Assembly: GCF_003018255.1 (NCBI RefSeq)
Contig: NZ_CP027440.1
Direction: 5' to 3' (one strand)
Origin: Escherichia coli
GTDB lineage: Bacteria; Pseudomonadota; Gammaproteobacteria; Enterobacterales; Enterobacteriaceae
Length of the DNA stretch: 64,000 nucleotides
Part shown: one piece after another, positions 22,920-62,720 of the stretch
Layout: every line of letters begins with the position of its first letter
Position numbering within the stretch: the stretch's first letter is position 1
Notes under the pieces: generated by a model
Told to the model about the DNA's origin: nothing
The model's database searches: none
The model's input: only the letters and a program-made list of their open reading frames with translations
Position numbers and translations under genes: made by a program

Positions 22920-23228
22920 AGATACCTCCTCGACGGCTGACTTTGTGTGCTCTCCTCTTGTGGTGATCTTCTGATTTAATTTTAATCAATGATAAAGAAG
23001 TGGATGGTGACCATTTCTGATGCAGTTGTTCAAAAAAACACCATGATGAAGTGTGATGAACTTCAAATCAGCGTGTTAGTACGATTTGGTGAAGGATGAG
23101 ATTTATTTGTCGGCTGGCCTTGAGTTTAGCGGGGTATGTCAGTACTATAACGCGTCATTTTTCAGCCGACCTTTAACACGTTCCTTGCCTCCCCGGGATT
23201 CGGCTGACCCAGACAGGAGGCTGAATAA

Positions 23229-23642
<414 letters not shown>

Positions 23643-24740: not shown

Positions 24741-25046
24741 AAGTGATAAAAACCGCAGAAACAGACGTTCCCTCCATAAATCTCTTGCTATTCCTTTTAT
24801 AAAAAGTTCGCAGTACCCATACCTGGCCCCCAGCCTCGCCGCTGGTAGTTCGTGTCATGTTTTTTACGCGTAAAACACGACAAAAGCATCAATACAGCGA
24901 TCGTCTCACTTGTATGATAATAAAAACAATATGTTATATATGAATGTGCTGTTATTTTATTGTTTTTATATATAAAAAGATAAAATACCATCACTTTCGT
25001 AATCTTGAACGCTTTGCAGGTGCGTTCAATCCAATAAATGCTAATA

Positions 25047-25067
25047 TTATGGCTATCATAGCCATAA
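25047..25067. promoter_or_regulatory. Perfect 21-bp palindrome, candidate operator of the HTH/HipA-like module
   Basis: TTATGGCTAT-C-ATAGCCATAA (10-bp arms, 1-bp centre) ending 21 bp upstream of the HTH gene start codon. Confidence 0.45.
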
Positions 25068-25087
25068 AAAGATAAAATATTATCACT

Positions 25088-25579
25088 ATGGGTAAAAAAA
25101 CAGCACCGTTACTCCCTTATACGAATCAGATGCTTAGTGAATTTGGTGAGCGGCTGAAACTTGCTCGTTTACGACGCAGGCTTACCGCAAAGCAAGTTGC
25201 TGAACGTGCTGGGATGTCGCCAATAACATTGCGCTCTCTGGAGTCAGGAAGTGCAGGGGTCACGATAGGGGCATATTTGTCTGTGATGCAGGTTTTGGGC
25301 CTGGAAACGGATTTAAATAAGCTTGCAGCTGAAGACGACTTAGGGCGTCAGCTCCAGGATTCCCGTTTGATTAAAAAAAGAGGGCTTTCTCGTGCATCAA
25401 GTAAGAATGAAGAAGGTTCTCAGACAGCCTCATTGCAGATGAGGCACGAGAAAGAAGGTCATCTCACCACGGATTTAACAGCACTGGCAGAAGGCTCGAC
25501 GCCATCTATTACAGGAGAAACATCAACCTCTCTTGCAGCACTATTAAAACCGATAAAAAAACCGTTAAAAGGAAATTAA
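25088..25579 (+). CDS. XRE-family HTH protein, HipB-like putative antitoxin with long C-terminal extension
   Basis: 163 aa; HTH_XRE signature around [32 protein letters not shown]; Ser/Thr/Glu-rich low-complexity C-terminal ~75 aa; stop 25577-25579 is 2 bp before the kinase ATG. Confidence 0.75.
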
Positions 25580-25581
25580 TT

Positions 25582-26850
25582 ATGGCATTAATCGGAGTGT
25601 ATGCGGATTGGGAAGGCCTGGATGGTCCGGAGCGGATTGGTTATTTACACAGTCGCCGCACTCGGACGCGTGAGATATTTGAGTTTGAGTACGATAAAAA
25701 GGCGCTTGCAGATCCTTCACTTAATTTCATTCAGTTAGATCCTGAAATAATGTTGTATGAGGGAGCACACTACCCAATTCCTCCAAAGGATAAATTTGGT
25801 GCATTTAGTGATTCCTGCCCGGATCGTTGGGGGCGTATGCTAATGAAGCGTCGTTTTGAGAGGGATATTCGAGACGGGTTATGTGATAAAGACTCCCACC
25901 TTTATGAGTCTGATTATCTACTAGGTGTTCATGATCTTTATCGGGTTGGGGCCCTTCGATACAAACGTGAAGACGCTGGAGAGTTTCTTGATAATCGCAT
26001 TGATGTTGCAGCCCCACCATTTACCGAAATAGCGAGTCTGGAAAGGGCTAGCCGGGCAATTGAAGAAGATCCTGATAATAAAGAGCTAATGGGGCAAAAA
26101 TGGTTAAGAATGCTAATCGCTCCGGGGGGATCATTAGGGGGGGCACGTCCGAAAGCCAGTGTTGTTGATGAAGCTGGGCATCTCTACATCGCTAAATTTC
26201 CCAGTGTAAAAGATGAGTATGATGTTGGTGGATGGGAAATGGCCGTTAATGCACTTGCTGTTGGCTGTGGACTGAATGTTGCACCTGCTCAGGCGCATAA
26301 ATTTGCCAGCAATTACCATTGTTTTATGGTTCGTCGTTTTGACCGCACTAATGCGGGAAGGCGTCTGCATTTTGCTTCGGCTATGACACTAACCAGGCAT
26401 CAGGATGGTGAAGATGCCTCTACAGGTGTGAGTTATCTGGAATTAGCAGATGTTCTTATCAGGCATGGCGCGCAGACTAATACTGATCTTAAGGAACTCT
26501 GGTCCAGGATTGTTTTTAATATTCTTGTTTCTAATACCGATGATCATTTACGCAATCATGGATTTATCTTGATACCAGGAAAAGGTTGGCGGCTTTCTGA
26601 GGCATATGATTTGAATCCTGTGGTCAGGTCTGATGGTTTAAAACTCAATATTACGGAAAATGACAATGCACTTGATTTGGAATTAGCTAGAGAAGTTGCA
26701 GAGTATTTTCGACTTAGTTTGACGGAAGCTGATGACATTATTGCTAATTTTAGAGGGATTGTCAGTCAGTGGCGAATCATTGCCGAGCGTCTGAGATTAC
26801 CTGGTCGTGAGCAAGAGTTAATGGCAGAGGCATTCAGAGCGTCAATTTAG
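25582..26850 (+). CDS. HipA-family serine/threonine kinase (putative type II toxin)
   Basis: 422 aa; Gly-rich loop GGSLGGARPKAS, catalytic-loop motif NTDDHLRNHG and HipA_C-like C-terminus (DLNPVV...); aaggaa RBS upstream of ATG. Confidence 0.8.
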   Translation: MALIGVYADWEGLDGPERIGYLHSRRTRTREIFEFEYDKKALADPSLNFIQLDPEIMLYEGAHYPIPPKDKFGAFSDSCPDRWGRMLMKRRFERDIRDGLCDKDSHLYESDYLLGVHDLYRVGALRYKREDAGEFLDNRIDVAAPPFTEIASLERASRAIEEDPDNKELMGQKWLRMLIAPGGSLGGARPKASVVDEAGHLYIAKFPSVKDEYDVGGWEMAVNALAVGCGLNVAPAQAHKFASNYHCFMVRRFDRTNAGRRLHFASAMTLTRHQDGEDASTGVSYLELADVLIRHGAQTNTDLKELWSRIVFNILVSNTDDHLRNHGFILIPGKGWRLSEAYDLNPVVRSDGLKLNITENDNALDLELAREVAEYFRLSLTEADDIIANFRGIVSQWRIIAERLRLPGREQELMAEAFRASI

Positions 26851-43731: not shown

Positions 43732-43920
43732 CAGGGACATCCTTTTATCATCGGGAATACGAAAGAAAAGGGAGAATAAACGTCTTACTTATAGAACAGT
43801 GAAGAATGCCACAATTTTACGCTTTGAAAATGATGACACTATCACAGTTGGCGCATTCATTAACGATAGGGTATAAGTAAAACAATAAGTTAACACCGCT
43901 CACAGAGACGAGGTGGAGAA

Positions 43921-47144: not shown

Positions 47145-47321
47145 ATCTTATCCGACCTTTCAGGCCAGATCCTCGGAAGGGGAAGTTGATTAATTTGTGT
47201 GAAATACACATTGAAAGCCGATTCGAAGAAAGTGAACCGGCATTTTCAGTGGCTAGTATAGCGTAAGGTACTGTAAAGCCGCCAGAGGGTTAAAATTCAG
47301 ACAGCTGAAAAATGAAAAACT

Positions 47322-47420
47322 GCCTGATGCGCTATGCCGAACAGGCCTACGCAGTCCCCGCAATATATTGAATTTGGACGATTTTGTAGGCCTGGCAAGG
47401 CGTTTACGCCGTATCCGGCA
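47322..47420. repeat. REP-like repeat
   Basis: gcctgatgcgctatgcc...gcctacgcag...gccgtatccggca motifs between ytfL and msrA. Confidence 0.55.
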
Positions 47421-56349: not shown

Positions 56350-56450
56350 TGCCTGATGCCGATTCGTAGGCCGGATAAGGCGCTCGCGCCGCATCCGGCG
56401 GTTGTGCGCTGAAGCCTGATGCGACGCTTACCGCGTCTTATCATGCCTAC
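56350..56450. repeat. REP/BIME repeats
   Basis: gcctgatgcc...taggccggataaggcgctcgcgccgcatccggcg...gcctgatgcgacgcttaccgcgtcttatcatgcctac between ytfQ and ytfR. Confidence 0.8.
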
Positions 56451-62589: not shown

Positions 62590-62720
62590 TCAGCCTGATA
62601 GAGTGTGTGTAGGCCGGATAAGGCGTTCACGCCGCATCCGGCATTTGAGCATAGTGCCTGATGCGACGCTTGATGCGTCTTATCAGGCCTACAGGTGCAC
62701 CGCATCCGGCAAACCATACT
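62590..62720. repeat. REP/BIME repeats
   Basis: gtaggccggataaggcgttcacgccgcatccggc...gcctgatgcgacgcttgatgcgtcttatcaggcctac...caccgcatccggca between mpl and yjgA. Confidence 0.8.

Follow-up and report, generated by a model that had tools for sequence, protein, structure and literature searches.

A divergent HipBA-type gene pair, hipA-2/xre-3, of Escherichia coli: a predicted toxin–antitoxin module with paired promoter sites and a long-tailed HipB-like partner

The DNA analysed here, called the window throughout, is one strand of 64,000 nucleotides from Escherichia coli (RefSeq assembly GCF_003018255.1, contig NZ_CP027440.1). About 400 bp downstream of rplI it carries a pair of adjacent genes, one for a helix-turn-helix (HTH) protein of the XRE type that resembles HipB, and one for a kinase that resembles HipA. 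The pair has already been annotated and was previously named (hipA-2/xre-3), and it is a member of a divergent, widespread HipBA subfamily. Probably it is a type II toxin–antitoxin module of the HipBA kind. It represents no new category, as its gene organisation, fold and expected logic are those of HipBA. Within the searches made, three aspects look new: the 46-bp operator architecture, the tethered C-terminal motif of the HipB-like protein, and the loss of the toxin by different frameshifts in major clones of extraintestinal pathogenic E. coli (ExPEC).

Both genes start with ATG (Table 1). The open reading frame list and the sequence place the TAA stop codon of the hipB-like gene at 25577-25579 and the start codon of the kinase gene at 25582, leaving a gap of 2 nt. 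Because of this gap and the AGGA motif inside the end of the upstream gene, a single operon with coupled translation is the natural reading, and the two genes probably form one translationally coupled unit. In RefSeq, PGAP labels the kinase as a “type II toxin-antitoxin system HipA family toxin” and its partner as a “helix-turn-helix domain-containing protein”.

Table 1. Features of the hipB-like/kinase pair and of its promoter, in window coordinates.
Feature	Position	Strand	Description
Operator unit 1 (degenerate)	24947..24993		Predicted; convergent GTGCTGTTATTT (+, T at 24947) / AGTGATGGTATTT (-, T at 24993), outer T's 46 bp apart
Operator unit 2	25039..25085		Predicted; ATGCTAATATTATGGC (+, -49 from ATG) / GTGATAATATTTTATC (-, -3 from ATG), 46 bp apart
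hipB-like gene (xre-3)	25088..25579	+	163-aa XRE-HTH protein, putative antitoxin/autorepressor; RefSeq WP_000516891.1
Helix-turn-helix domain, residues 18-75	25139..25312	+	Pfam HTH_31 E=6.6e-11, HTH_3 E=2e-6; predicted local distance difference test (pLDDT) score 76-90 in fused model
Conserved post-HTH segment, residues 76-95	25313..25372	+	D83, G86, D91 invariant in 71 homologues including Bacteroidota (alignment)
Variable low-complexity linker, residues 96-141	25373..25510	+	S/T/E/L-rich; not alignable between genera; pLDDT ~33
Conserved C-terminal motif, residues 142-158	25511..25561	+	Consensus G-x-[ST]-[STA]-x-x-L-[AS]-x-L-[LI]-x-P, then basic residues
AGGA ribosome-binding site (Shine-Dalgarno-like) for kinase gene	25570-25573	+	Inside hipB-like 3' end, 8 nt before kinase ATG; read from sequence
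hipA-like gene (hipA-2)	25582..26850	+	422-aa HipA-fold Ser/Thr kinase, putative toxin; exact sequence is WP_106905326.1
Gly-rich (P-)loop, kinase residues 181-193	26122..26160	+	PGGSLGGARPKAS; S184 aligns with HipA autophosphorylation site S150 (hhalign)
Catalytic motif NTDDHLRNHG, kinase residues 318-327	26533..26562	+	D320 corresponds to HipA D309, N325 to HipA N314
Kinase D343	26608..26610	+	Aligns with HipA Mg2+-binding Asp D332; invariant

The affiliation of the kinase with HipA is indicated by its domain content and by its fold. Pfam HipA_C covers residues 184-397 with E=3.4e-47. An AlphaFold2 model built on 78 homologues reached a mean pLDDT of 90.8, and its best matches in the PDB were the full-length HipA proteins of E. 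coli K-12 and Shewanella oneidensis, with a template modelling (TM) score TMq of 0.63-0.73 over ~460 columns at 16-19% identity. HipT and CtkA, on the other hand, match only the C-terminal half of the model, HipT over ~260 columns. Because the model matches HipA over its whole length, we read the protein as a full-length HipA with its own N-terminal subdomain, and not as a split HipT.

The residues needed for catalysis point in the same direction. An hhalign alignment to K-12 HipA (probability 93.8%) places S184, K205, D320, N325 and D343 on S150, K181, D309, N314 and D332, and all five positions are invariant in the 78-sequence alignment. In the P-loop, P181 and the stretch S184-A192 are invariant among the 78 homologues and G182 is kept in at least 90% of them. 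Part of this loop is encoded by two G tracts, a G6 run at 26124-26129 and a G7 run at 26137-26143. An earlier reading of this DNA without database searches (the sequence-only reading) had described two coupled genes 2 bp apart and had assigned the 422-aa protein to the HipA family from a glycine-rich motif, GGSLGGARPKAS, and the catalytic motif. The gene arrangement was confirmed, and the motifs are found at kinase residues 182-193 and 318-327. Its further suggestion that the enzyme is apparently active agrees with the alignment and the invariance of the key residues: the kinase looks catalytically competent, and S184 is likely the site of a self-inactivating autophosphorylation.

The relationship of the HTH protein to HipB is visible at the level of profiles. 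The proteins encoded upstream of the kinases share a HipB-like core of ~95 residues, in which an N-terminal segment and the HTH are followed by LAxxDxLGRxLQD (partner alignment). Thirteen core residues are invariant in 71 sequences, among them P10, G20, R27, R29, R30, D83, G86 and D91. Searched against sequences of known structure, a profile of this core retrieved PDB 9U9G (E=2.5e-39), Legionella HipB (E=1.5e-5) and K-12 HipB (E=1.9e-4). Because the profile detects the HipB proteins of Legionella and K-12, the HTH protein can be regarded as a distant HipB relative.

Downstream of the core, the proteobacterial partners, which are ~150-190 aa long, continue into a variable linker and a conserved C-terminal motif. 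Of the 38 long HipB proteins, 36 have this architecture and the motif, and the linker measured 36-76 aa in all but one of 36 scored homologues; the odd reading of 139 aa came from a mis-anchored core motif. Partners of the Bacteroidota type are ~100-115 aa long, with little beyond the core except a basic RAPKK tail. Kinase positions that distinguish enzymes with long HipB partners from those with short ones are confounded by phylogeny and were not drawn upon. The long tail is a subfamily trait of the proteobacterial branch and is found beyond E. coli. The helix of the C-terminal motif is immediately preceded by conserved Ser/Thr residues. The sequence-only reading had seen in the upstream protein an XRE HTH like that of HipB, a length about twice that of K-12 HipB and a disordered tail rich in Ser, Thr and Glu. 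The Pfam matches and the profile-level relation to HipB bear out the first point, the 88 aa of K-12 HipB the second, and the composition and low pLDDT of residues 96-141 the third. Its term “non-canonical antitoxin” fared less well: the long tail is real, but the term overstates the case, as such a tail is the norm in the proteobacterial branch and 9U9G also has 153 aa.

We folded a HipB-(GGGGS)5-kinase fusion with AlphaFold2, using a paired alignment of 28 loci. The HTH core was modelled with a pLDDT of 76-90, and residues 91-140 as well as the artificial linker with ~31-39. The values rose again in the C-terminal motif, to 85 for residues 141-150 and 76 for residues 151-160, and the model contains a beta-bridge at residues 144-145 and a helix at 146-150. 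Since a beta-bridge requires a partner strand, the model suggests that the C-terminal motif docks on the kinase, which we take only as a hint.

The upstream region of the hipB-like gene is AT-rich and contains several palindromes as well as a 24-nt direct repeat whose copies are 92 bp apart. A comparison of the sequences upstream of hipB in 43 proteobacterial loci resolved these features into one conserved element, a site of ~16-18 bp with the consensus AAGTGCYAWTATTCTGGC (TGCYA-N6-TGGCA-like, with an AT-rich centre). Convergent pairs of sites exactly 46 bp apart occurred 25 times, in 19 of the 43 loci, compared to no more than one pair at any given distance among 200 shuffles. The preferred positions, found in most proteobacterial loci, are -49 on the plus strand and -3 on the minus strand, counted from the hipB ATG, and in many loci a second pair lies further upstream. 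The E. coli promoter follows this plan with two units offset by 2 x 46 bp. Unit 2 abuts the hipB start codon and holds the perfect palindrome TTATGGCTAT-C-ATAGCCATAA (25047-25067). The 11-mer RTGMTAATATT occurs twice in the 64-kb window, both times in the hipB promoter, compared to 0.14 occurrences expected. A strict composite operator pattern with zero mismatches had no match in the fetched loci; the counts given here rest on a regular-expression analysis.

This conserved, statistically non-random arrangement on the hipB promoter probably represents operators, through which the operon may be autoregulated. The centres of the sites are ~31 bp apart, about three helical turns, a spacing that would place two HTH dimers on the same face of the DNA, where the kinase may bridge them as in other HipBA repressor complexes. 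The operator of K-12 HipBA is TATCC-N8-GGATA, from which the window operator differs in sequence. Between the two operator units, at 25006-25030, lies a perfect 8-bp inverted repeat, TTGAACGC-N9-GCGTTCAA, that is unlike the operator consensus of the family.

In most proteobacterial loci the downstream operator site ends 3 nt before the hipB ATG, and in the E. coli copy no Shine-Dalgarno sequence was found before this codon (window 25070-25090). The hipB mRNA may be leaderless or near-leaderless. A TAAAAT sequence at 25073-25078 would put the start of transcription ~3 nt before the hipB ATG.

Relatives of the pair are widespread. Kinase identity is 77-82% in the named matches from Enterobacter, Salmonella, Yersinia, Serratia and Pectobacterium, 72-76% in Pseudomonas, Stenotrophomonas, Burkholderia and Achromobacter, and ~50-54% in Bacteroidota, Myxococcota and one metagenome-assembled genome of a spirochaete. 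The partnership is conserved as well. An XRE-HTH gene lies directly upstream of the kinase gene in 78 of 80 fetched loci from Proteobacteria, Bacteroidota, Myxococcota and other phyla, that is, in all 78 in which the upstream reading frame was readable. It ends between -17 and +61 nt from the kinase start, mostly within a few bases. Plasmid-borne copies are present in Azotobacter, Pantoea, Hymenobacter and Undibacterium, and tblastn searches of phage genomes found no family member. With 50-80% identity maintained across phyla, the subfamily appears from these comparisons to be under strong purifying selection.

A search with the HipB-core profile against 1.84 billion cluster representatives (clusters at 50% identity) retrieved 183 proteins at E<=1e-30 and 2024 at E<=1e-10, with lengths from ~100 to more than 300 aa. 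The subfamily is hence large, with at least 183 HipB-core clusters at the stricter threshold, and conserved from Enterobacterales to Bacteroidota. In a few representatives of 181-195 aa the core profile matches twice, in separate stretches, of which the best one sometimes lies in the C-terminal half. These proteins may carry a tandem duplication of the core in one polypeptide.

A close relative of known structure is PDB 9U9G, deposited as “XRE family transcriptional regulator, HipB”, a 153-aa protein from Pseudomonas. It shares 60% identity with the window protein over residues 1-99 (E=1e-30), which places both in the same HipB subfamily, and its long tail likewise ends in an S-S-E-L-A-K-K-L-L motif. 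The first 99 residues of 9U9G are identical to those of a 153-aa Pseudomonas protein encoded downstream of glmS and directly before a 418-aa kinase, which is 58% identical to the window kinase. The differences lie in the genus, the locus (downstream of glmS) and the deposition of the HTH protein alone. A paper associated with 9U9G was not found.

Compared to K-12 HipBA, the pair shares the hipB-hipA gene order, an XRE-HTH partner, multiple palindromic sites on its own promoter, and a disordered C-terminus of HipB. The kinases share the full-length fold including the N-terminal subdomain (TM 0.67-0.73), and the positions of the catalytic, Mg-binding, ATP-lysine and P-loop serine residues. They differ in sequence, with 17-18% identity in the structural alignment, and the window kinase lies at a different locus and apparently in a different Hip clade. 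The window HipB is twice as long as that of K-12, to which it adds a 17-residue N-terminal extension, the LGRxLQD segment, the long linker and the terminal motif.

A HipA_C kinase core is also common to HipBST (E. coli O127, Legionella) and to YjjJ/HipH. By sequence, the window kinase core even scores better against HipT and the YjjJ model than against HipA, although the match to the NCBIfam YjjJ model (E=8.5e-12) is far below the cutoff. In HipBST, the N-terminal subdomain is missing from HipT and provided by HipS, and the antitoxin is not HipB; YjjJ is monocistronic with a fused HTH (PMC8262856). Unlike both, the window system is bicistronic, with a kinase that matches HipA over its whole length.

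For Gerdes et al. 2021, the HipA family consists of kinases encoded in a hipBA arrangement; of the hipBA clades in their Hip Tree (I, II and IV-VIII), clades II and IV-VIII are listed as lacking any member studied by experiment (PMC8262856). In this sense the window kinase belongs to the HipA family, as it has the HipA_C core with its motifs, its own N-terminal subdomain and an upstream HipB-type HTH gene. By BLASTP, the pair is not close to the clade I reference HipA, and the portion of Table S1 that was accessible does not contain the subfamily motifs. According to the same authors, HipB is both antitoxin and autorepressor in every hipBA module investigated so far (PMC8262856).

Several other systems were considered as relatives. 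Burkholderia pseudomallei BPSS0394/0395 was rejected as a characterised relative, as it is BrnTA; the hipA of this species is BPSL0559. Also rejected were a plasmid-borne HipBA of Klebsiella michiganensis, which is K-12-like with 44% identity to K-12 HipA, and HipAD/DS-6 (DefensePredictor), which has a different partner protein. The HipBA of Acidovorax citrulli (HipB 168 aa, HipA 440 aa) has been described as similar to K-12 HipA (PMC11990009).

The names hipA-2 and xre-3 (system TA28) were given in the adherent-invasive E. coli strain NRG857c by Bustamante & Vidal 2020 (PMC7232551). The chromosomal locus is that of the window, flanked by the rps/rplI ribosomal genes and a fatty-acid-type cluster, with the same 1269-nt kinase gene. 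These authors reported the locus as common to many E. coli strains and hipA-2 as a pseudogene in CFT073 (PMC7232551). By quantitative reverse-transcription PCR in NRG857c, they found hipA-2 mRNA increased 8-32 fold in bile salts, and also increased in macrophages (PMC7232551). For this pair, the study comprised annotation and the PCR measurements only, without toxicity, target, operator or family analysis. Xre-3 was annotated as a gene of 294 nt (4,541,621..4,541,914) with “no domain identified” (PMC7232551). A gene of this length would begin at Met67, inside the 163-aa protein, and lack the HTH. The start of Xre-3 was probably mis-called in NRG857c, hiding the HipB-like nature of the partner. 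No paper was found that cites the RefSeq protein accessions of the pair.

For the working of the module, we infer toxicity, neutralisation, DNA binding, tail docking and a target along the following lines. The HTH protein would bind as dimers to the paired ~16-bp pseudo-palindromic sites, convergent and 46 bp apart, on its own promoter, and because one site abuts the start codon, it would repress the operon. It would also bind and neutralise the kinase through the conserved core, composed of the HTH and the LGRxLQD segment, and in Proteobacteria additionally through the C-terminal motif on its ~50-residue disordered tether. When not bound by HipB, the kinase would modify Ser/Thr residues of an essential target by phosphorylation and so arrest growth. 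K-12 HipA phosphorylates GltX and HipT phosphorylates TrpS; by analogy, the target of the window kinase is probably a translation component such as an aminoacyl-tRNA synthetase.

A bolder form of this mechanism, which we regard as doubtful, holds that proteobacterial HipB proteins neutralise by docking the tethered [ST][ST]xxLAxLLxP motif and its basic residues on the kinase, which would be new for HipBA, and that the kinase target differs from GltX and TrpS. The motif might sit at or near the P-loop or the active site as a pseudosubstrate or, because the conserved Ser/Thr residues directly precede the motif helix, as a real substrate. The switch for release would then be either breakdown of the tether or phosphorylation of the tail. 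No statement on HipB phosphorylation was found in a phosphoproteomics paper on K. pneumoniae.

A number of results weigh against the pair being a HipBA-type toxin–antitoxin module or against parts of the mechanism. The Pfam search, which had been proposed in the sequence-only reading and found HipA_C so strongly, returned the N-terminal HipA domain (Couple_hipA) only marginally (E=0.25). Sequence similarity to characterised HipA is low, with 26% identity to K-12 HipA over 147 aa in BLASTP, and phmmer against PDB sequences found HipT weakly (E=2e-8) and no HipA. For the HTH protein, BLASTP gave no alignment with K-12 HipB, and two NCBIfam cutoffs were not reached, that of the K-12-type HipB equivalog (PRK09726/NF007271; 17.1 bits vs 79) and that of TIGR03070 couple_hipB (30.3 vs 71.65). 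The protein is therefore a HipB analogue or distant homologue, and not an orthologue. A sigma-70 scan showed no plus-strand promoter upstream of hipB. The case for tail docking is weak, consisting of one fused-chain AlphaFold2 model without predicted aligned error, coordinates or a HipB-alone control. The frequent pseudogenisation of the kinase, described below, could equally mean that the module is dispensable. Finally, identity with an already characterised hipBA locus of known target had been named as the finding that would overturn the earlier assignment; the locus turned out to have a name, and no toxicity, neutralisation or target data were found in the literature for the pair or any subfamily member.

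A main role in anti-phage defence by abortive infection, with the phage releasing the kinase, would be compatible with a toxin–antitoxin mechanism, and we consider such a role unlikely. Toxin–antitoxin modules are often defence systems, and the patchy occurrence of the pair in E. coli (19% of genomes) and the presence of the family on some plasmids would suit this role. DS-6/HipAD, an E. coli system with a HipA-family kinase, was validated as anti-phage (PMC13092281), yet its partner protein is different. Also at odds with defence, neither defence nor mobile-element genes adjoin the pair in E. coli or P. putida, and the family was not found in phage genomes. In PADLOC-DB v2, the best match of the kinase was to the candidate family PDC-M03A with E=0.004, and the HTH protein had generic HTH matches only. 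A PHROGs search was uninformative.

Within E. coli, the toxin gene is often disrupted. The pair was present in 1045 of 5426 complete genomes (19%), in the chromosome and at the same locus. In a genome of sequence type 131 (ST131), PGAP flagged the kinase as frameshifted; a single C is missing from codon 169 (window coordinate 26086). In CFT073, the kinase was flagged as frameshifted as well, by a different mutation, an extra G in the G7 run 26137-26143 (becoming G8), which specifies P-loop residues G186-G187. Both lineages retain an intact HTH gene. A survey of kinase match lengths in 60 carrier records, taken at even steps through the ranking and thus a rough, database-biased estimate, gave 18 matches of 1269 nt (including UTI89 and an avian pathogenic E. 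coli (APEC) O1 strain), 34 of 1268 nt (ST131-type), seven of 1270 nt (including a Nissle 1917 genome) and one fragmentary match. Roughly, ~30% of the carriers have a length-intact kinase and ~70% a frameshifted one. The G tracts of the P-loop might simply be prone to mutation, or they might form a slippage site that turns the toxin on and off.

Different kinase frameshifts beside an intact HTH gene are the pattern expected of toxin loss. Read differently, the same survey, in which about 70% of the sampled carriers had a match of 1268 or 1270 nt and one had fragments only, and the PGAP flags in ST131 and CFT073 could mark the pair as a decaying, inert remnant, of which the window copy has not yet been hit. 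This we hold to be quite improbable. The window kinase is full length and keeps every residue that is invariant across the 78 homologues, purifying selection on the subfamily appears strong, and length-intact alleles persist, for example in UTI89 and APEC O1. In addition, the intact antitoxin gene of the two frameshifted lineages speaks for selective loss of the toxin, not for random decay.

Further variants of the locus were seen in passing. Nissle/ST73-like genomes with the 1270-nt match probably share the G8 run of CFT073. E. coli EC23HZZ201 has a divergent locus (~92-93% identity), in which the HTH gene has intact length, the kinase consists of two small fragments, and an additional MaoC/PaaZ-domain gene precedes the gene for a major facilitator superfamily (MFS) transporter. 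In Pseudomonas (~6.8-Mb chromosomes), the homologous pair whose HipB matches 9U9G follows immediately after glmR-glmS; one strain has the kinase in two parts of 189 + 246 aa, and in another a shorter product of 386 aa is called. Disruption of the kinase beside an intact hipB may thus recur outside E. coli.

The gene order in the window is that of an E. coli chromosome, with ulaA-F, yjfY and rpsF-priB-rpsR-rplI on one side and ytfB-fklB-cycA on the other side of a 10.6-kb metabolic islet, at the edge of which the pair is located. A non-toxic signalling pair, in which the HTH protein regulates this adjacent catabolic islet and the kinase modulates the regulator, would fit that position and the conserved Ser/Thr residues before the C-terminal motif of the HipB tail, but is highly improbable, because the pair occurs without the islet in P. 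putida, the one other genus in which the neighbourhood was checked, and next to glmS in Pseudomonas, and because the predicted binding sites are confined to the pair's own promoter within the 64-kb window, the islet having its own TetR regulator.

Toxin-mediated antibiotic persistence was first exemplified by HipA-type kinases, and targets are known for only a few of their clades. Characterisation of the present module would add a new kinase-target pair, and would test how generally kinases are inhibited by a tethered C-terminal antitoxin motif. It concerns clinically important E. coli lineages, in which the pair is length-intact (UTI89/APEC) or frameshifted (ST131 and CFT073/Nissle), and would reveal any phenotype of toxin loss in pandemic ExPEC clones.

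The islet between rplI and ytfB is not present in K-12 (PMC7232551). At window positions 26993-~35700 it encodes an MFS transporter, a 690-aa flavin adenine dinucleotide-dependent oxidoreductase, an acyl-CoA:acetate/3-ketoacid CoA-transferase (CoA, coenzyme A) and an enoyl-CoA hydratase, as well as a sugar-phosphate isomerase/epimerase, a 3-ketoacyl-acyl carrier protein reductase and a divergent TetR regulator. It has no integrase. Rfam matches at the gathering threshold were obtained at 23165-23249, 43732-43854, 47206-47263, 47343-47385, 56369-56447 and 62612-62689, comprising the RpsF leader upstream of rpsF, the small RNA ES239, STnc450, ES036 and two naRNA4 (derived from repetitive extragenic palindromic elements). 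All of these matches in the window lie outside the hipB-like/kinase pair.

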